A stretch of DNA of 64,000 nucleotides from contig CBDCXV010000002.1 in assembly GCA_965223905.1 (NCBI GenBank), positions 384,001 through 448,000 of the forward strand, in the 5' to 3' direction. This document shows positions 29,733-39,441 of the stretch, in pieces; within the stretch, counting starts at the first letter, position 1, and the number at the start of each line of letters is the position of its first letter. The translations under genes were made by a program, and so were the position numbers. This stretch comes from Candidatus Latescibacterota bacterium (GTDB lineage: Bacteria; Latescibacterota; UBA2968; UBA8231). Below the pieces are notes generated by a model, which was not told the origin of the DNA, searched no databases, and saw only the letters and a list, made by a program, of their open reading frames with translations.

Positions 29733-29810
29733 GCCAATTCTCCTCTGGTTATGGGGGTTTACAGCATATGACTATTCAGAACTGGACAGGTTCCCTCCTT
29801 TCGTAATTAG

Positions 29811-29834
29811 TGTGGTATAACATGTTATACCACA
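29811..29834. promoter_or_regulatory. Perfect 24-bp palindrome TGTGGTATAACATGTTATACCACA between divergent lipoprotein and transposase genes
   Basis: Seen directly; shares the flank CCTTTCGTAATT with the 27106 copy. Confidence 0.6.
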
Positions 29835-29932: not shown

Positions 29933-30967
29933 ATGGGAGAAAAGCGGTTTTTGGGTAAGTGGAGCGGACGTGGAAAGAAGCGCCGGCAGAAGCGTATTAC
30001 CCTGTTGGAGATAGTGCATATGTTCCCCGATGCCCGCACGGCGGAAAGCTGGTTTGAAGCGTTGCGTTGGGGTGACGGTATGTATTGTCCTCGTTGCGGC
30101 TGTGATGCTGACAGTATATCCGAGTGTCCGCGCCGGCGACCGCAGCCGTATTGGTGTAAGGATTGCCGAAGGCGTTTCAGTGTCCGCACCGGAACGACGT
30201 TAGAAGCGTCTAAGGTCCCACTGCACAAGTGGGCAATAGCGATCTACCTGCACGTTACCAGCACGAAAGGTATCAGCAGTGCCCGCCTTTGCCGGGATCT
30301 TGGGGTAAGGCAGCATACGGCTTGGTTCATGTTGCATCGCATACGGGAAGCATGGAGCGATCAGCCATCGCTACGCAGCAGTGAGGCAGAGATTGACGAG
30401 GCATACTTTGGCGGCAAGGAGAAGAATAAGCATAAGGATAGGCGCCTGGGGCGCCGCTGGATGGATGGCAAGCGTATCGCCGTTGGCATCAAGGACCGCA
30501 AGACTGGCAAGATACGTGCAGAGGTATTACCGCCAGGCTCGGACATTCATGACAACATGCCCCCCAGTATGGACAGGTCCGACGACAGCAGCCTACGGGC
30601 CTTTGTCCGGGACAACCTCCGTATCCGGGGAATCCTCTACAGCGACGGCGCCGAAGCGTATAAGGACTTCCCCTGGCTCGGTAAGCATGTTGCCGTTAGA
30701 CACAGCAAGGGAGAGCATGCCAAACCAAGACGCAAGGGGCGCAAGTTAGTTGCCCACACTAACGGCATAGAATCGTTTTGGGCATCCGTCAAGCGAGCCT
30801 ATCACGGCACCTTCCACCAGATATCCCCGAAGCACCTACAGCGATACCTGGATGAGTTTTGCGCCCGGCACAATATCCGCGATAAGGATACGATAGAGCA
30901 GATGCGGGAGTGTGTGCGGCAGATGTATAACAAGCGGTTGACGTATAAGGATCTTGTTGGCAAGTAA
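29933..30967 (+). CDS. tnpA: IS1595-family (ISXO2-like) DDE transposase 1
   Basis: RW..G..CP.C Zn ribbon, FSVRTGT, EIDEAY, YSDG, HTNGIESFW, KHLQRYL.EF. Confidence 0.95.
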   Translation: MGEKRFLGKWSGRGKKRRQKRITLLEIVHMFPDARTAESWFEALRWGDGMYCPRCGCDADSISECPRRRPQPYWCKDCRRRFSVRTGTTLEASKVPLHKWAIAIYLHVTSTKGISSARLCRDLGVRQHTAWFMLHRIREAWSDQPSLRSSEAEIDEAYFGGKEKNKHKDRRLGRRWMDGKRIAVGIKDRKTGKIRAEVLPPGSDIHDNMPPSMDRSDDSSLRAFVRDNLRIRGILYSDGAEAYKDFPWLGKHVAVRHSKGEHAKPRRKGRKLVAHTNGIESFWASVKRAYHGTFHQISPKHLQRYLDEFCARHNIRDKDTIEQMRECVRQMYNKRLTYKDLVGK

Positions 30968-31072: not shown

Positions 31073-31732
31073 TTAGGTGGAAGGTGGCGAGGCTGGAGCT
31101 TTGTTCGCTTTCTTTCGATTGTCTTCAACGAGCTTGGGTAACGTAAAACTATACGTTAAAAACACTTCCGTAAATACTTGTAACTGTCTTGTAGTATCTT
31201 CGTTGGCATCTTCGTTGTGAGCGGCTTCATTGCCATCAAGTCTAATAATATCAGCCCAATCTTTCATTGATGGTGTTATCATATGATTTTTGGATAAGTC
31301 ATCAATCCTGTCGATTAGCCTCGATTTCTTTGACAATGAACTATCTATCTCTACAGTAGCACGGTCGAGAACTTTACGAAACATCATAGCCGCGCTTGTA
31401 TAGCTTTTCCTTTTGAGATTATCTACAGCTTCTACATAATTATTGGCAATTGGTTTAGGGGTAGAATTTGGAGCTTCTACAGATTCAAACTGTGGATACA
31501 TTCCTATAATTGTGAATTTTTCATCGGTAGGATTTCCAGAGCACTTCATAGGTTTTTTATCGTCATCCAATATACGTAAACAAACCACAGTTATATTTCT
31601 GCAATTCCTACACTGGAAAAAAGAATTCCATCGATAGTCATAATATGAAGAATGAGTAAGACTTTCGCCCACACATGTATGTCCAAGATTAATCCCTTTG
31701 CAATGGGGACAATTTAATACCATTTCTGCCAT
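31073..31732 (-). CDS. Zn-ribbon + DUF4145 (HEPN-like) protein
   Basis: CPHC/CRNC; AA.M.RK.L; IRLDGNEAAH (R-x-N-x-H). Confidence 0.8.
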   Translation of the reverse strand: MAEMVLNCPHCKGINLGHTCVGESLTHSSYYDYRWNSFFQCRNCRNITVVCLRILDDDKKPMKCSGNPTDEKFTIIGMYPQFESVEAPNSTPKPIANNYVEAVDNLKRKSYTSAAMMFRKVLDRATVEIDSSLSKKSRLIDRIDDLSKNHMITPSMKDWADIIRLDGNEAAHNEDANEDTTRQLQVFTEVFLTYSFTLPKLVEDNRKKANKAPASPPST

Positions 31733-33298: not shown

Positions 33299-33570
33299 GG
33301 CTCGTCAGCTTCGCTTGCGTAGGAACCTCCGTTAGTCGGGTTCCTGCCTGAATACAATAGCCATCATAACCGACCACGGGGTAGCGCACCTATGGTCTGG
33401 CGAATAGGGTAGACCTTCCCGCTCTCTACGCGGCGGAGTTGACAGAGCCCGGCACCAACGGTTGTCGGAAATCTGTCAACTTCACATAGTCCGGGCCGTA
33501 GTCGTCATCATCGTAATCAGGTTCCTTCAGCAGAATCTGGTCATCCTCTCTCTGGCGGCTACGGCCTTTT
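33299..33570 (+). ncRNA. Candidate structured RNA/leader with alternative pairings
   Basis: Long G:U-containing stems identified by eye (see findings). Confidence 0.5.
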
Positions 33571-33598
33571 CTATGCCTTGCGGGAAGGGTCCGAACAA

Positions 33599-34114
33599 AT
33601 GGCTATCTACGTCTTGCTGTTACTGCTTACAGGATGTTCCAGCTATGTCACCAAGGAAGAACTCCCGGAACTAATCGGATCGTATCTCAAATCACATAGC
33701 GGGAGAGTCACTGCACATACTCTGTATGCGAGAGAAATACGCCTTATGCCTTTTCCTCAAAATTATTTGTATGAGGATGGGGAGAGTCCGGGAGGAGTAA
33801 TATTAAAAGTCAATAATGAAGGATTTACGCAGTTTCTTATAAGCTCTCCAGGAGGAAGGATATATCTGGATGCAGATGATAAGGGAGGAACTTTACAGGT
33901 ATCCAATACATCCGAAAATGGGGGAGGAGCTACAATAATGAGCCAAGAAAATTCGTCATTCATATTAATTCGTCCAGGGAAGGATCTGGATAGAAATTCA
34001 ATTGCGTTAAGCTCTGAGAAGAATATTAAATCTAAGTTCTTTGGAACTCGAATTTTCGCAAACGATCATAGGGGAAGAGCTAAGACGATATATAGATCAC
34101 GGCCAATTGATTAG
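33599..34114 (+). CDS. Putative lipoprotein
   Basis: MAIYVLLLLLTGC lipobox. Confidence 0.65.
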   Translation: MAIYVLLLLLTGCSSYVTKEELPELIGSYLKSHSGRVTAHTLYAREIRLMPFPQNYLYEDGESPGGVILKVNNEGFTQFLISSPGGRIYLDADDKGGTLQVSNTSENGGGATIMSQENSSFILIRPGKDLDRNSIALSSEKNIKSKFFGTRIFANDHRGRAKTIYRSRPID

Positions 34115-34129
34115 AAAGAGGGGGAGAAA

Positions 34130-34438
34130 ATGAAGCCAACTGAACAGGCAATCCTACGCAAATACAAAACCGAGCTAATCGAAGAAGTAGGAAATACTAA
34201 AAACTCTACCCACCTAAGAACACTATCCGCAAGAATGTTCTTGGAAATTGATGCCTTAGATCATCCTAATGAGATGTCTGTATTAATTAAGTCAATTAAC
34301 AGACACACTCGGGAAACTCCTACTCACCTACGTTCCATCCAGACTACGCTTGAGTCTCTTGAGTGTAGCCTTGCGGAACTCGTGAGCTTTTTGAAATCTG
34401 ATAAGAAAGTCAGTCCAAAGCCTGTCTCTACCACATAA
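34130..34438 (+). CDS. Hypothetical protein (102 aa)
   Basis: RBS GGAG; helical composition. Confidence 0.6.
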   Translation: MKPTEQAILRKYKTELIEEVGNTKNSTHLRTLSARMFLEIDALDHPNEMSVLIKSINRHTRETPTHLRSIQTTLESLECSLAELVSFLKSDKKVSPKPVSTT

Positions 34439-34553
34439 AAAACCCTGCAATCTCGGGGGCGGTTTCTTTCTCCGCTCGTAGTTCTGCATTCTCTTTCTGC
34501 AAGCGGACAATCTCTTGCCGCATCTTCTTTGCAGCTTCTTTGTGCAAGTTCAT
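34428..34553 (-). CDS. Small coiled-coil protein (41 aa)
   Basis: MNLHKEAAKKMRQEIVRLQKENAELRAEK. Confidence 0.4.
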   Translation of the reverse strand: MNLHKEAAKKMRQEIVRLQKENAELRAEKETAPEIAGFFMW

Positions 34554-34626
34554 TGTTTCATCTTTTCCGCTCCACAAGTAGGAACGTCCTACGCCGGAGC
34601 ATTTACGCAGGCAAGGAGAATGTCCT

Positions 34627-34701
34627 ATGCCTACCTGGGTGGTTATCGTGCTTGAGGTGGCCCTGGAGCTAATCCAGATCATCTTGAAGTACGGAGCCTA
34701 A
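34627..34701 (+). CDS. 24-aa hydrophobic peptide (type I toxin-like)
   Basis: MPTWVVIVLEVALELIQIILKYGA; RBS AAGGAG 8 nt upstream; terminator directly downstream. Confidence 0.55.
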   Translation: MPTWVVIVLEVALELIQIILKYGA

Positions 34702-34706
34702 CGGCT

Positions 34707-34752
34707 AAGGGACAGTGAAGCCAGGGATATGAGTTTCGCTGTCTCTTTTTTT
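34707..34752 (+). terminator. Rho-independent terminator
   Basis: AGGGACAGTGAAGC / GTTTCGCTGTCTCT stem followed by a T-run. Confidence 0.65.
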
Positions 34753-34867
34753 AGCTTAGATGTTGAAGAACAGCAACAACCTAACTGCCCGCTGTTGAAT
34801 ACCACTATATAGTAGTATAAAGGGGGCAACAATTTGACAAGTGTCGCCGGACAGCGTAGTACTTAGA

Positions 34868-35054
34868 GAGACGGAGCGGAACAGACGGGATTTCGGGACC
34901 GGATTCCGATCCCTGGCTACAATATCAGGTTGTAGCGTACCAGCCCTCAACGGGCGTTGAGAGCGTGAAAGCTTCGTTTTCTCGGTTATCAACCATACGG
35001 CAAGCCGTATCGGAACGAGAAAAGTCGCTTTAGCCGCCTGCCCGCTACCGTCTC
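34868..35054 (+). ncRNA. Candidate 187-nt multi-branched RNA upstream of transposase 2
   Basis: Closing stem GAGACGG/CCGTCTC with at least 6 internal helices; TTGACA at 34834. Confidence 0.6.
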
Positions 35055-35068
35055 AAATAAAGGGTAAA

Positions 35069-36010
35069 ATGTTCTTAAATAAATGGAATAATCTGGTAAA
35101 ATCGCAGCCGGAAATACTCGGTCCTGCGGCACTGAACAGTGTTTCTATCCGGGAATTTTTCAGCCGCTTCCCCGACAAAACCACATCGGAACAATGGTTT
35201 GAACGCTTGCGTTGGGGGGAGGATATCCTATGTCCTCACTGTGACGCTATCCCGTCTGAATGTCCGCAACGGCGACCACAACCGTATTGGTGTGGTGTCT
35301 GTCGGCGGCGGTTCTCTGTGCGAACTGGCACCCTGATTGAGGGGTCTCCTGTGTCCTTTCAGGATTGGGCATTTGCCTTATACCTCCATGTAGTATCGCC
35401 GATTAACGCAGTCCAGTTACAGGGTTATCTCGGGATAAAGCAAGCAACTACTTGGTTCATGCTGCACCGTCTACGTTGTGCCTGGCCAGACCCGGAACCA
35501 CTTCGCGCGAAGGAAGCGGAGGTTGATGAAACCTATTTCGGCAGTGGCCGGGGAACGGCGGGCAAGACTACCGTTATCGGCATGAAGGACCGACATACAA
35601 AACACGTCGCGGCGGAAGTAATATCCAGTCTCGACAAGGCTGCCGTGCAGACATTTATCCGGCGCCATCTTCACAGTCAGGGACGGCTGTTGAGTGATGG
35701 CTTCCGCAGCTACACACGCTTCCGCTGGGTAAGCCTGCATGAGACAGTAGAACACCAAGACGGGGAGTATGTCCGGGGAGACGTGCATACCAACGGCATG
35801 GAATCATTCTGGTCGGGTCTGAAGCGAGCATACTACGGCGTTTATCACCATTTTCCCGAGAAGCATTTTCAACTCTACCTGAATGAGATAGTCGGCAGGC
35901 ACAACCTGCGTGACCGGGACACGACGGAGAGGATGAAGTATCTTGGGGAGAGGTTGGTTAGAGGGGGAGAAGGCGGTTTGATGGGACACGATTCGTGCCC
36001 CTTGTCCTGA
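35069..36010 (+). CDS. tnpA: IS1595-family DDE transposase 2
   Basis: RWG...CPHC, FSVRTGT, EVDETY, LSDG, HTNGMESFW. Confidence 0.93.
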   Translation: MFLNKWNNLVKSQPEILGPAALNSVSIREFFSRFPDKTTSEQWFERLRWGEDILCPHCDAIPSECPQRRPQPYWCGVCRRRFSVRTGTLIEGSPVSFQDWAFALYLHVVSPINAVQLQGYLGIKQATTWFMLHRLRCAWPDPEPLRAKEAEVDETYFGSGRGTAGKTTVIGMKDRHTKHVAAEVISSLDKAAVQTFIRRHLHSQGRLLSDGFRSYTRFRWVSLHETVEHQDGEYVRGDVHTNGMESFWSGLKRAYYGVYHHFPEKHFQLYLNEIVGRHNLRDRDTTERMKYLGERLVRGGEGGLMGHDSCPLS

Positions 36011-36111
36011 CGTAACTCAGGTCGTCCCTACCCTTCATCCGGGTAGGAAAGATTCGCGCCCTGTCTTGTGTAATGGCTTGAATCTTTGGCACCTTCTCCC
36101 CCTCCTAATCC

Positions 36112-36140
36112 TTGACATACATCGACGGGTGGCGTACAGT
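36112..36140 (+). promoter_or_regulatory. Sigma70-type promoter TTGACA-17-TACAGT
   Basis: Consensus -35, 17-bp spacer; predicted +1 near 36147. Confidence 0.65.
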
Positions 36141-36146
36141 GGAGGC

Positions 36147-36197
36147 GATCTGGATTAGCTCCAGAGCCACCTCAAGCACAATGACCACCCAGGTAGG
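36147..36197 (+). repeat. 51-bp inverted copy of the peptide coding sequence 34630-34680
   Basis: 48/51 identical to the reverse complement. Confidence 0.9.
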
Positions 36198-36209
36198 AAA
36201 GGGAACCCG

Positions 36210-36581
36210 ATGACCGGATCAACTTTGGAAACAGTACGGAAAGAACTACTGAAACTATTGGAGAGGCAGAGTAAGGACGATAATAATCGGCTTCGGGCTG
36301 CGGAATTGCTTATCAAGATGGAAAAAGACAGAAATATCTACGAAAAGCTTGAAACTATAAAGGGAGTCGATGCGGCAACTGTATCCACTATATTGGCAAT
36401 TGTGATGTCTATTGACCCTGACAAAGTCCAGGAGATTGTCTCATTCCTTAAAGAGAAGGTCGAAAGCCCTCCTAAACAACTCGGTACGACTGTCTCTATC
36501 GACGCCTTCATCTATAGAACAAAAAGCATCATCGATTCTTTTGAAATTATCGGAGGCCCCGTCAATAAGGCTACTCCGTAA
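36210..36581 (+). CDS. Hypothetical protein (123 aa)
   Basis: ORF downstream of the promoter, purine-rich RBS. Confidence 0.6.
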   Translation: MTGSTLETVRKELLKLLERQSKDDNNRLRAAELLIKMEKDRNIYEKLETIKGVDAATVSTILAIVMSIDPDKVQEIVSFLKEKVESPPKQLGTTVSIDAFIYRTKSIIDSFEIIGGPVNKATP

Positions 36582-36626
36582 ATCTTCCTGCCATCCATCC
36601 TGTAACCTGTTTCGTGGTGTGTCCAT
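36441..36626 (-). CDS. Small protein with TPRNRLxDGWQEDL motif (copy B)
   Basis: RBS AAGGAG; reads inward from the right TIR. Confidence 0.55.
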   Translation of the reverse strand: MDTPRNRLQDGWQEDLRSSLIDGASDNFKRIDDAFCSIDEGVDRDSRTELFRRAFDLLFKE

Positions 36627-36663
36627 GTTCGCTCCTTTTTGTATTATCCAGAGAATCAGTGCT

Positions 36664-36751
36664 CTACTGAAAATCCTTCGGTATTATTTCTCGTAGAACG
36701 TCGATTGAGCCCCTTTTCGGGGAAAATTGCGCTGTTAAGCGGATAGGTCCC
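36664..36751 (-). repeat. Right terminal inverted repeat (88 bp)
   Basis: Ends ...TAGGTCCC; matches 26023-26110. Confidence 0.92.
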
Positions 36752-37459
36752 GCTGAAACGACCGATGCCCTGGAACAGCGCGCGAATCCCGTTCTGGTAT
36801 CCATTGAATGCTTCGAGGATGGTGTCGAGGTGCTGGGACGCAATCGGGGCTTTGACCTTGCTGCCGTCTAGCAACTGAATCTCGAAGCTCCTGTCGTCCT
36901 GGTCAGCCTCGGGCACCGCACCTCGTATCGAAACTTCCTCGGTCAGTTCCTTCACTTTGGGCGACGCAAGGACCAGCCGTCGCCGGACGTCCCTGGTGAG
37001 CCTCGCCGTGGTTTTGTGGTCCGGACCATCGAATAAAACCGCTTCACCCTCCTTCAGGCTTCGCCCCAGCTTGTCGAAGTAGCCCAGCGTCCCCTCCGGC
37101 AGATGCGGCTCGATGGGACGTTCGTCTTCCGCTGCACTGATAGCTTGGATGATCGCGTCGCGCGCGTAACCGGAATAGGTCTGGCTGACTGCCGGGAGCA
37201 AGGTCGGCGGTTCCGAGGTAATTCGGATTTCCAGGGATGCACTGCCGGGATTAATCGCCGCGAGCCTCAATTGGATGTTCTTCGTGAAGCCACGGGGTGA
37301 CCGCTGACGGTTCGGGTGATCCGTGAGGAATTTGGACTTGGCCACTTCAACGACCATTTCTTCCAGCACCGCGACATCTTTCAAGAATTCCAGCGGGACG
37401 GAGTGGTCGTCGTAGCGCGCACCGACGAGGTGCAGGCGCATGAAAGGTTCCGTGCTCAT
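36752..37459 (-). pseudogene. 5' part of orf375 (includes the right TSD copy at 36752-36759)
   Basis: ATGA-coupled to hsdM; continues in frame at 26014. Confidence 0.9.
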
Positions 37460-39441
37460 GAAGTCACCTCCCGCAGCAATCGCATGATCTTTTCCTCCGC
37501 CTTCTTCAGATCCGCGTCGATCTCCTCCAGCGGTCGTGGCGGTGTGTACTTGTAGAAGTGGCGATTGAAGTTGATCTCGTAGCCGACCTTGTCCTTGCCG
37601 CGGTCCATCCAGGCGTCGGGAACGTGGGGGGCTACCTCCCGTTTGAAGTAGGCGTCGACGTTGTCTTTAAGCGGCACGTTCTCGAAGTCGCGCAGCTTGG
37701 TGTCGGGCTCGCAGCCTTTCTCCCGGCCATCCTTCCTTACCTGCTCGGCCTGCGGATCCTTCTCGGTGAAGACATCCCGGAAGAGATTCTGTTCCGCCTT
37801 CTTCCAGCGCGATTGACGCTTATGCAGAAGAGTCGCAATTCTCCCCCATGCCGCATTCCAGTCGTGCTCCGGCTCTCGCCCCAACTCTTTGTCGATGGCC
37901 TGCACATCGTCGAGCAGGTACGGGCAGGCGTCGAGGAAGCGGGCCTTGTCTTCTATAGTCATCCGGTAGCGCAAGCGCAGGGGTTGCTCCACGGTCACGC
38001 GTGTGTAGCCGAAGTCGTCGTTGTCGAAGACCCTGGAGCGATCTCCGTCCTCAAAGCGGCCGTATAGCCGCACGATCTCCTCGATCTGCTCTGCGGCGAT
38101 GTGGCGGCGCTTGTCGCCAAGGCTGCGCATGTTGTCTTCACCCCCGCCCGCGGTCCACAAGTCGCGGGCGTCGAGGAGCTGAATCTTTCCCATCCTGCGC
38201 TCCTCCTTGCGGTTGGTGACGATCCAGACGTAGGTGCCGATGCCGGTGTTGTAGAACATCTGCTCCGGCAGGGCGATGATGGCTTCGAGCCAGTCGTTCT
38301 CGATGATCCACTTGCGAATGTCGCTCTCGCCGGAGCCCGCGCCTCCGGTGAAGAGCGGCGAGCCGCTGAAAACGATAGCGAGCCGCGAGCCGTGTTTGTG
38401 TTCCCTCGGCCGCACGGGTTCCCGCTTGTGCCACATGTGCTGCAGGAAGAGCAGCGAGCCGTCGTTCACGCGCGGAAGCCCTGCCCCGAAACGGCCCTCT
38501 AATCCGAGCTTGTCGTGTTCGCGCTGGACCTCATTCTTCTGCCTCTTCCAGTCCACGCCGAAGGGGGGATTGGTGAGGAAGTAGTCGAAGGTCTCGCCCT
38601 CGAACCGGTCCTCGGTCAAGCTGTCGCCGAAGCGGATGTTGTCGCCGCCGCCGTTGTGGTCGACCTGCTTCATCAGCATGTCGGAGGCCGCGGTGGCGAA
38701 GGCGCGGTTGTTGTAGTCCTGCCCATAGACGTAGAGCCGTGCCGAACCGTGGTGGTCTCGCAAGTCGTTCTGCGCTCCGGCCAACATGCCGCCCGTTCCG
38801 CATGCAGGGTCGAGGAGCTTGCGCACAGTGCCGGGTGTGGCGAGCAGTTGGTCGTCGTGAATGAAGAGGATGCTCACCATCAACCGGATGACCTCGCGCG
38901 GCGTGAAGTGGTCGCCCGCGGTCTCGTTCGCCAGCTCATTGAAGCGGCGGATGAGATTCTCGAAGAGAAGTCCCATTTGCTCGTTCCGGACCCTGCCGGG
39001 GTGCAGGTCCACATCGCAGAACTTCGAGGCGACGAGGTACAGGATATTGGCTTCGCGCATCTTCTCGATCTCCGTCTCGAACTCGAAGAACTCGAAGATG
39101 TCGCGCACGTTGGCCGAGAAGCCCTGGATATAGCTGACGAGGTGCTGGGCGATGTTGTCCGGATCGCCTTTGAGCTTCTGGAAATCGAGGTCTGAGTGGT
39201 TGTGGAAGCGCTGGCCCGCGGCCCTGTTCAGCCTGGCGTCGAGCGCGTCGCCGTCGAGTCTGCCGCGCCAGCGATCATATTCGGACTGGACCTTCGGCTT
39301 GCTCGGCGCCAGCACGCAGTCGAACCGCCGCAACACGGTCATGGGCAGCATGACGCGCTCGTACTGCGGCGGGCGGTAGGGACCGCGCAGCAGGTCGGCG
39401 ATCTGCCAGATCAGGTTGGCGAAGTAGCTGTGGTCAGGCAT
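37456..39441 (-). CDS. hsdM: Type I R-M methyltransferase subunit
   Basis: GDHFTPREV, DPACGTGGML, NPPFG, FYNTGI.TY. Confidence 0.95.
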   Translation of the reverse strand: MPDHSYFANLIWQIADLLRGPYRPPQYERVMLPMTVLRRFDCVLAPSKPKVQSEYDRWRGRLDGDALDARLNRAAGQRFHNHSDLDFQKLKGDPDNIAQHLVSYIQGFSANVRDIFEFFEFETEIEKMREANILYLVASKFCDVDLHPGRVRNEQMGLLFENLIRRFNELANETAGDHFTPREVIRLMVSILFIHDDQLLATPGTVRKLLDPACGTGGMLAGAQNDLRDHHGSARLYVYGQDYNNRAFATAASDMLMKQVDHNGGGDNIRFGDSLTEDRFEGETFDYFLTNPPFGVDWKRQKNEVQREHDKLGLEGRFGAGLPRVNDGSLLFLQHMWHKREPVRPREHKHGSRLAIVFSGSPLFTGGAGSGESDIRKWIIENDWLEAIIALPEQMFYNTGIGTYVWIVTNRKEERRMGKIQLLDARDLWTAGGGEDNMRSLGDKRRHIAAEQIEEIVRLYGRFEDGDRSRVFDNDDFGYTRVTVEQPLRLRYRMTIEDKARFLDACPYLLDDVQAIDKELGREPEHDWNAAWGRIATLLHKRQSRWKKAEQNLFRDVFTEKDPQAEQVRKDGREKGCEPDTKLRDFENVPLKDNVDAYFKREVAPHVPDAWMDRGKDKVGYEINFNRHFYKYTPPRPLEEIDADLKKAEEKIMRLLREVTS

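Follow-up and report, generated by a model that had tools for sequence, protein, structure and literature searches.

A 187-nt multi-branched self-pairing block in front of an IS1595-family transposase gene of a Latescibacterota bacterium: a possible structured leader

What is a 187-nt self-pairing block doing immediately upstream of a transposase gene? The question arises in a stretch of 64,000 nucleotides from a Candidatus Latescibacterota bacterium (contig CBDCXV010000002.1 of assembly GCA_965223905.1, positions 384,001 to 448,000; hereafter the window), in which the sequence and its minimum-free-energy (MFE) fold reveal a multi-branched block of this size ahead of a transposase gene of an IS1595-type insertion sequence (IS). 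The original prediction took the block to be either a new noncoding RNA associated with the transposase or a cis-regulatory leader. The answer that we tentatively prefer is that it is a lineage-specific, dispensable and cis-acting structured 5' leader of the transposase mRNA.

Structure and position of the block

The helices listed in the original prediction are all present in the sequence, and all but one of them, the 4-bp GGTT/AACC, are part of the MFE fold (Table 1); the length of 187 nt that had been claimed was also borne out. On the plus strand the block forms 64 Watson-Crick pairs and one G-U pair, which closes a loop, with a free energy of -79.0 kcal/mol, and on the minus strand it forms 64 Watson-Crick pairs and four G-U pairs at -90.2 kcal/mol. 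When 34834-35068 was folded, the plus strand gave -85.4 kcal/mol (z -2.98), which was equalled by one of 200 dinucleotide shuffles, and the minus strand gave -96.6 kcal/mol (z -5.43), which was equalled by none of 200. The genomic background consisted of 3192 segments of 190 nt taken from both strands of the 64 kb, with MFE regressed on GC content. Compared to these, the minus strand of the block lies beyond every segment (-4.4 standard deviations) and the plus strand ranks seventh (-2.9 standard deviations). The structure of the block is more than chance.

The block is situated between a promoter-like site, TTGACA-17-TAGTAC, and the Shine-Dalgarno sequence (SD) and ATG of the transposase gene. 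The fold begins 5 nt after the promoter-like site, where about 6 nt had been claimed, and the ATG follows 14 nt after the last pair. This site was not listed by a consensus promoter scan because its second hexamer does not have the final T. Apart from the Pfam match given in Table 1, the transposase open reading frame (ORF) has a second and weak match, to Zn_ribbon_IS1595. Since distant homologues align with the transposase from residue 1 and the N-terminal region is common to relatives at 53% identity, the block is a noncoding leader and not part of a mis-called protein. Occlusion of the SD or the ATG by the fold was not found, as in both the MFE and the centroid folds the pairing ends before them. 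No terminator follows the block and therefore any plus-strand transcript would continue into the transposase ORF.

No Rfam family is matched by the block. Rfam 15 gave no match at the gathering score anywhere in the window, four weak matches at E<=10 over 34400-36400, none of which is on the block, and, with 271 nt alone, only a chance match to psbNH (12.1 bits, where the gathering score is 45; E 1.9). Thus, the Rfam scan that had been proposed as a check along with the original prediction matched no family to the block. ARAGORN reported no tRNA or tmRNA. The possibility that the block is a fragment of an rRNA, an intron or a ribozyme was rejected, there being no Rfam match in its favour.

Searches for further copies were done with the leader and with a covariance model, R1, which was built from the single block sequence and has 68 pairs. 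With 34681-35068 as the query, the best E values among 80 homologue loci were 1.7 in blastn and 0.37 in nhmmer. BLAST with the leader found only pieces of 19-42 nt (E 0.012-0.088) in 8 genomes of 100 relatives, and in the class (132 genomes) and the phylum (168 genomes) it found only the genome of origin, G000. There was no match to the leader in the plasmid and phage sets, and a 22-nt exact pattern had 0 matches in viral contigs. R1 found itself alone in its own genome and G000 alone among 151 phylum genomes; its best E values in two sets of 80 distant transposase-homologue loci were 1.1 and 4.5. Among 29 paralogue loci of the same genus it gave a single 16-bit match (E 0.01), in the leader of locus L194, for which homology is not demonstrable. 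Signs of a nested insertion resembling a miniature inverted-repeat transposable element were not found either: the block is single-copy in its own genome by BLAST and by the covariance model, and there is no direct repeat at its borders.

Table 1. Coordinates of the block, its helices and the surrounding features, in positions of the window unless a locus is named
Feature	Position	Strand	Remarks
Structured block	34868-35054	+	Sense assigned from its place in the transposase 5' leader; fold more stable on the minus strand
Closing stem, 7+5+3+3 bp	34868-34888 with 35034-35054		Three hairpins and a branched arm lie inside it
Outer closing helix GAGACGG/CCGTCTC	34868-34874 / 35048-35054		Sequence and MFE fold
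Second closing helix AGCGG/CCGCT	34875-34879 / 35042-35046		Sequence and MFE fold
Hairpin GGGA-CGG/CCG-TCCC	34895-34913		Sequence and MFE fold
Hairpin GCTACAA/TTGTAGC	34916-34936		Sequence and MFE fold
Hairpin CTCAAC/GTTGAG	34946-34961		Sequence and MFE fold
Arm base AAAGC/GCTTT	34968-34972 / 35027-35031		Branched arm spans 34968-35031
8-bp arm helix TTTTCTCG/CGAGAAAA	34977-34984 / 35016-35023		Sequence and MFE fold
Arm hairpin ATACGG/CCGTAT	34995-35010		Sequence and MFE fold
Promoter-like site TTGACA-17-TAGTAC	34834-34862	+	TTGACA 34834-34839, TAGTAC 34857-34862; predicted
Unpaired 14-nt spacer	35055-35068	+	Ribosome-binding site AAGGG at 35060-35064; sequence
IS1595-family transposase, 313 aa	35069-36010	+	Intact ORF; Pfam DDE_Tnp_IS1595 PF12762, E 1.6e-27
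GGGGG-N7-TTGACA	34822-34839	+	Weak likeness to the homologue left end GGGGATTATA..TTGACA; does not have the TTATA core
Left arm of 58-nt inverted repeat (90%)	34623-34680		The arms bound the whole unit
Right arm of 58-nt inverted repeat (90%)	36147-36204		The arms bound the whole unit
Hairpin, inner half of left arm and next 13 nt	34647-34693	+	Four G-U pairs make the hairpin plus-strand-specific
Terminator-like hairpin, 17 bp, 3 G-U, then 7 T	34707-34752	+	Fold and sequence
Outward promoter-like site TTGACA-17-TACAGT	36112-36140	+	10 of 12 consensus matches; resembles the left promoter-like site
Family B leader loci	L189, L196, L198, L204, L207-L212, L215-L217 (G000, G001, G002)		Example L208:1939-2158 (-)

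Leaders of related transposase genes

Distant homologues of the transposase (29-48% identity) were represented by 80 of 296 with one genome per species and 80 of 99 on metagenome contigs. For the leader count, loci were dropped when the match began after query residue 26, when there was no in-frame ATG, when less than 600 nt was available upstream, or when they were duplicates. Of the 103 distinct loci left, all having 600 nt or more upstream, 75 had an end motif of the GGGGATTATA type, with TTGAC about 18 nt further on and then the ATG. The distance from the motif to the ATG in these 75 homologues had a median of 75 nt (interquartile range 65.5-87) and was at most 100 nt in 65 of them. In the element studied here the distance from GGGGG..TTGACA to the ATG is 247 nt, and 60 nt when the block is subtracted; the 200 nt to the left of the block, including the 58-nt repeat, fall outside the canonical plan of the homologues. 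In one homologue, L048, a -10-like TATAGT is followed by 7 nt, a 10-mer identical to 35055-35064 and the ATG, and the block is placed exactly between the feature that matches this -10-like sequence and the 10-mer. Since the leader without the block is close in length to the median of the homologues, the block represents a lineage-specific insertion into, or expansion of, the 5' untranslated region (UTR). Homologues at 53% identity or less, the 160 loci among them, do not share the structure, and so, for homologues at this distance, the conservation on which the idea of a transposase-associated RNA had been made to depend was not found. L048, which comes from another phylum, has a leader of 543 nt (1914-2457) in which two GC-rich hairpins, both trailed by an identical T-rich tail of about 25 nt, stand between the end motif and the promoter-like site; long leaders with inserted hairpin modules thus recur in the IS1595 family.

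Within the genus, transposase matches at E<=1e-20 numbered 9 in G000, 23 in G001 and 9 in G002, with 38-56% amino acid identity. Five copies, which we call family A, have a 10-bp stem GGGGAGCGGG/CCCGCUCCCC around about 70 nt, just before the spacer and the SD and ATG. This stem is lengthened on both sides in the family A copy L194. Three more copies of the family A element (L192/L197 and L206) have lost the interior at two breakpoints and have kept a small hairpin and an intact 330-aa ORF. In L195 the stem is GGGGAGAGGG/CCCUCUCCCC around 16 nt and has a change from C-G to A-U relative to family A. The inner closing stem of the block, GGAGCGG/CCGCU(A)CC, is of the same type as these stems and is at the same position.

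Another group, family B, comprises 11 distinct copies with a conserved multi-hairpin leader of about 200 nt that includes invariant blocks. It consists of two 5' hairpins, a helix around an SD and a three-codon ORF, and a third hairpin; a long-range pairing of CCUUC with the transposase SD GAAGG is predicted, and the G-U pairs are on the sense strand. The family B leader occurs in 4 of 168 phylum genomes, was not found by nhmmer in the distant loci and the window, and had no match in Rfam at E<=0.1. As a candidate for a new cis-regulatory RNA motif it is preferable to the singleton of the window. Since the leaders of the paralogues are structured, structured leaders between promoter and SD are the rule for the IS1595 elements of this genus, and the block is the largest of them.

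Two observations concern the surroundings of these paralogues. On contig C3 of G001 the IS1595-type genes of L192, L194, L197, L200, L203 and L206 lie inside a repeat unit of at least 2.3 kb, together with the 3' end of an upstream gene, which from a motif alone may be RadC/JAB-like, a downstream terminator and a further gene; three of these copies have insertions of 330-500 nt just before the leader. On contig C11 of G000, L204:2889-3026 (-), near a family B copy, matches the group II intron domain RF02003 (94.5 bits, E 1.2e-19).

Closer relatives were found in databases of proteins and reads. The protein database holds a 90% cluster with two members at 95% identity, from other assemblies, and all other relatives in it are at 47-53%; the changes in the 95% relatives are mostly conservative. 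Of the read runs compared, over their covered stretches, X1 and X2 probably derive from the source sample. Reads of another study, X3 and X4, contain a copy of about 92-93% identity that reaches into the same left flank, with X3 record 20 spanning 34488, outside the left repeat, to 36140. Because this copy continues into the same flank, a related organism probably carries it at the same locus. The block is kept in X4 record 26 (34834-35088) with 12 substitutions and five deleted bases; hairpin loops account for two of these bases, a junction for two and a helix for one, so that three of the four insertion or deletion events fall in loops or junctions. Its level of substitution, 12 in 255 nt, is not above that of the ORF (30 in 477 and 10 in 146). 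In another contig of X4, 190 nt long and with a depth of 3, 34869 is joined to 35059 through 12 intervening bases. We read these bases as 34872-34884 minus one base, by which about 174 nt (34885-35058) would have been lost; this copy still has the promoter-like site, SD and ATG, together with the 5' half of the closing stem. In a third contig among these relatives 34750-34833 is skipped. Since the interior has been lost in L192/L197 and L206, where the ORFs are intact, and in the X4 contig, the interior of the block is dispensable.

A proposed cis-acting leader and the other explanations

How would such a leader act? Transcription from TTGACA-17-TAGTAC would begin a few bases before the closing stem, and the 5' end of the mRNA would be a closed, multi-branched domain of great stability; between it and the ATG there would be 14 unpaired bases holding the SD. 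This domain may control the transposase message in cis, either as a 5'-terminal stem by which the half-life of the mRNA is set or by restricting the standby access of ribosomes, which would hold translation at a set level. In this scheme we infer the transcription start, the acting strand and the effect on stability or translation. The block may have grown by insertion or expansion inside the GC-rich 5' stem-loop that is found at the same position in the paralogues of the genus. Of the two halves of the original prediction, the leader is the one that has held up, by virtue of the anatomy of promoter-like site, SD and ATG and of the stem-loops at the same place in paralogues; the half that made the RNA a partner or guide of the protein has not.

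Known systems offer partial parallels. The 5'-terminal stabiliser stem-loops of bacterial mRNAs, such as the ompA leader, are simple hairpins. The block resembles them in having a stable stem within a few bases of the predicted 5' end, a stem that recurs in paralogues and even in copies without the interior; it differs in being multi-branched, and the 5' end here is a predicted one. The left end of IS200 has a terminator hairpin. Here too a terminator-like hairpin (34707-34752) lies just inside the left end, and between it and the transposase start there is a strongly structured leader; as is reported for IS200, a sense structure and an antisense RNA are both candidate repressors (PMC4513863, PMC5435999, 10.1101/2024.06.26.600842). 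Unlike IS200, which has an HUH enzyme, the element has a DDE transposase of the IS1595 type, and its structure is 187 nt long, multi-branched, leaves the ribosome-binding site free and has no sequence or Rfam relation to that of IS200. If the block is a working leader, it would be an unusually large, multi-branched case among the few insertion sequences that restrain themselves through RNA structure or antisense RNA (IS10, IS50 and IS200), and such control would evolve by growth and loss of modules inside one 5' stem-loop. The practical gain is modest: one testable element, and a multi-copy IS1595 family of the genus with a conserved 200-nt leader, which is the more suitable subject for experiments and for covariation work.

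Several observations weigh against a cis-acting leader. The promoter is a predicted one and its -10 hexamer, TAGTAC, is poor, with 3 of 6 consensus matches. The SD is not sequestered and hence no simple translational switch is visible. The fold rests on one sequence, and the X3 and X4 copies each have a 1-nt deletion inside the helix ATACGG/CCGTAT. Local alignment of the leader in the window with the family A leaders did not reach significance (best z 2.6, equalled by 8 of 300 shuffles), and no unusual stability is seen in the family A leaders (sense z -0.9 to -1.7); for these two reasons homology of the closing stem of the block with the paralogue stems is, from sequence, plausible only. The four G-U pairs inside helices all belong to the antisense strand and appear as A-C mismatches on the sense strand, where the fold is 11 kcal/mol weaker; an RNA selected in the sense orientation is expected to have the opposite asymmetry, although with four to five sites this is not statistically decisive. 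Finally, the loss of the interior in relatives can equally mean that it has no function.

The strand asymmetry matches an antisense RNA of the IS10 or IS200 type and, because of this, a minus-strand regulator transcribed leftward from the transposase start, like RNA-OUT of IS10 or art200 of IS200, is kept as a serious rival even though we consider it unlikely. In this reading the hairpin body would stabilise the RNA, whose short 5' tail (anti-SD CCCUUU), along with loop-loop contacts, would pair with the leader of the transposase mRNA and block translation. Besides the minus-strand fold, which no shuffle and no genomic segment equalled, and the four internal wobble pairs that are all G-U on that strand, the minus strand also gives the better fold for the adjoining 34760-34868 (z -2.61 vs -0.90), and a weak TTTACC-17-TAAGAA, seen by eye, would put a -10 at 35077-35072 and an RNA start near 35065. 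For IS200 an antisense RNA opposite its 5' UTR is reported (PMC4513863). However, the consensus scan of 34400-36400 lists no minus-strand promoter, the site seen by eye has 4 of 6 and 3 of 6 consensus matches, no terminator-like signal lies past the block on this strand, the asymmetry amounts to four or five positions, and in the paralogous leaders it is the sense strand that has the G-U pairs. RNA-OUT of IS10 is a single stem-loop of about 70 nt that overlaps the start codon and exerts antisense control on RNA-IN. If the minus strand is active here, the likeness would lie in a stable folded antisense RNA running from just inside the transposase start toward the element end, but the folded part stops 14 nt before the ATG and there is no convincing antisense promoter. 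An interior that had been flipped between the halves of the closing stem would fit both the asymmetry and a sense leader; this idea was set aside. It is also conceivable, though doubtful, that the block has no function at the RNA level and is a palindromic DNA insert, that is, a decayed small mobile or foldback element or a hairpin expansion, that landed in the leader of an old, immobile copy and is tolerated there. The block occurs only once in its genome, it has no relative in the 168 phylum genomes or in the plasmid, phage and viral sets, and its helices are almost all Watson-Crick (64 of 65-68 pairs), as in young DNA palindromes rather than old RNAs. A 12-bp inverted repeat bounds the block, which is inserted relative to the canonical leader; it was lost in one contig of a relative and the corresponding interior was lost in paralogues. 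The end motifs of the core element are degenerate with no target duplication visible, and the 543-nt leader of L048 likewise holds inserted hairpin modules. Against an inert insert are the intact ORF with mostly conservative changes in the 95% relatives, the block being not more diverged than the ORF in the X4 copy, the stem that recurs at the same position in several paralogue lineages and survives in deletion forms, and the fact that no second copy was found anywhere that was searched.

The remaining explanations give the block a role in trans or as a sensor, and we regard them as improbable to differing degrees. A leader that is processed to a stable small RNA, or that senses a ligand, temperature or the transposase, is very unlikely. 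It would be in keeping with a compact, closed 187-nt domain with a multi-way junction, and its model is the IS200 5' UTR fragment that regulates host genes in trans, the 5' UTR of IS200 tnpA being reported to give, by processing, a small, highly structured regulatory RNA (PMC5435999; bioRxiv 10.1101/2024.06.26.600842); yet conservation is limited to one lineage, conserved junction or loop nucleotides are not demonstrable, and the block is dispensable in relatives. That the IS1595 elements of this lineage have gained 5' structured RNAs, including the block and the family A and B leaders, as RNA partners or switches of the DDE transposase is a long shot; if true, for example through binding of the transposase or coupling to a cellular signal, it would be the first RNA component of a classical DDE insertion sequence. 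Most improbable of all is a trans-acting guide or bridge RNA that would partner the DDE transposase in reading the element ends or the target. Its attraction is that the block is close in size to the IS110 bridge RNAs, is upstream of the enzyme gene and has several unpaired loops, and that it would be new: in the titles and the opening lines of abstracts, none of the literature found ties IS1595 to a noncoding RNA, a bridge RNA or a structured UTR. The longest matches of the block to either end and the flank, in the same or the complementary sense, are only 5-8 nt and are reached by 63-300 of 300 shuffles, and an 18-nt, 83% complement to 34711-34728 with a 9-nt perfect core is about what chance would give by a rough estimate. 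Moreover, the block is absent from the 160 homologue loci and, bar the one 16-bit match, from the 29 paralogue loci of the genus, it is dispensable (the X4 contig has lost 174 nt, and paralogues lost the interior twice), the element has long inverted repeats of the protein type, and no terminator would free the RNA from the mRNA. The bridge (seek) RNAs of IS110 and IS1111 are likewise noncoding RNAs of about 180-190 nt inside the element and upstream of its mobility enzyme, but that enzyme is a DEDD recombinase and the one here is a DDE transposase (Pfam DDE_Tnp_IS1595), and the loops of the block are not complementary to the ends or the target, nor is the block conserved among homologues. The omega RNAs of IS200/605 and IscB are also transposon-borne structured RNAs beside the gene of a protein partner, but this unit has no TnpB or IscB gene, the IS1595 transposase being the only long ORF within the inverted repeats, and there is no Rfam match to the HEARO or IS605-orfB motifs. 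A new class of RNA-guided transposition is thus unsupported.

The element and its surroundings

The unit bounded by the 58-nt arms is single-copy in its own genome by BLAST, and no target duplication is visible. The hairpin at 34707-34752 with its run of T looks like a read-through terminator which, judging from the predicted fold, would halt transcripts coming from the left. In the X3/X4 reads 34716 is changed from T to C, by which a U-G pair becomes C-G, and the X3 copy does not have 5 of the 7 T. The stretch 34561-34760, which takes in the left arm and this terminator-like site and of which 34561-34622 is outside the repeat, is the most structured plus-strand stretch of the whole window (-83 kcal/mol, z -5.18, 8 G-U pairs; minus strand z -2.14). 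At the other end, the outward promoter-like site just inside the right arm would read across the arm into a 123-aa ORF (36210-36581), for which no Pfam family was found.

The region 33400-36752 is absent from both of the other genomes of the genus, G001 and G002, and looks like a variable island; synteny with G002 (94%) begins at 36753. Because the other two genomes share the region only from 36753 on, there is no empty site to compare. Among its neighbours, 31073-31732 encodes a DUF4145 protein and 37456-39441 an HsdM methylase of type I restriction. Immediately to the left of the element a small ORF (34428-34560, minus strand) has a C-terminal leucine-zipper-like stretch, which is reminiscent of the C-terminus of IS3-family OrfA proteins; the 84-aa ORF had no Pfam match, and several X3/X4 contigs cover 34305-34558. 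That the flanking small ORFs are paralogues, with the 58-nt repeat as part of a larger inverted duplication, was considered and rejected, as BLASTP gave E 11 and the similarity between the two sides ends at the arms.

The window has another IS1595-family gene, Tnp1 (29933-30967), which had been described as having no such leader. This is correct for the block structure, but the Tnp1 leader does hold a perfect palindrome of 24 nt (within 29810-29834), which is flanked by two copies of TAATTAG and lies about 100 nt upstream of the ATG. A related palindrome with ATACCAC is present at 34799-34818 in the leader of the transposase gene studied here.

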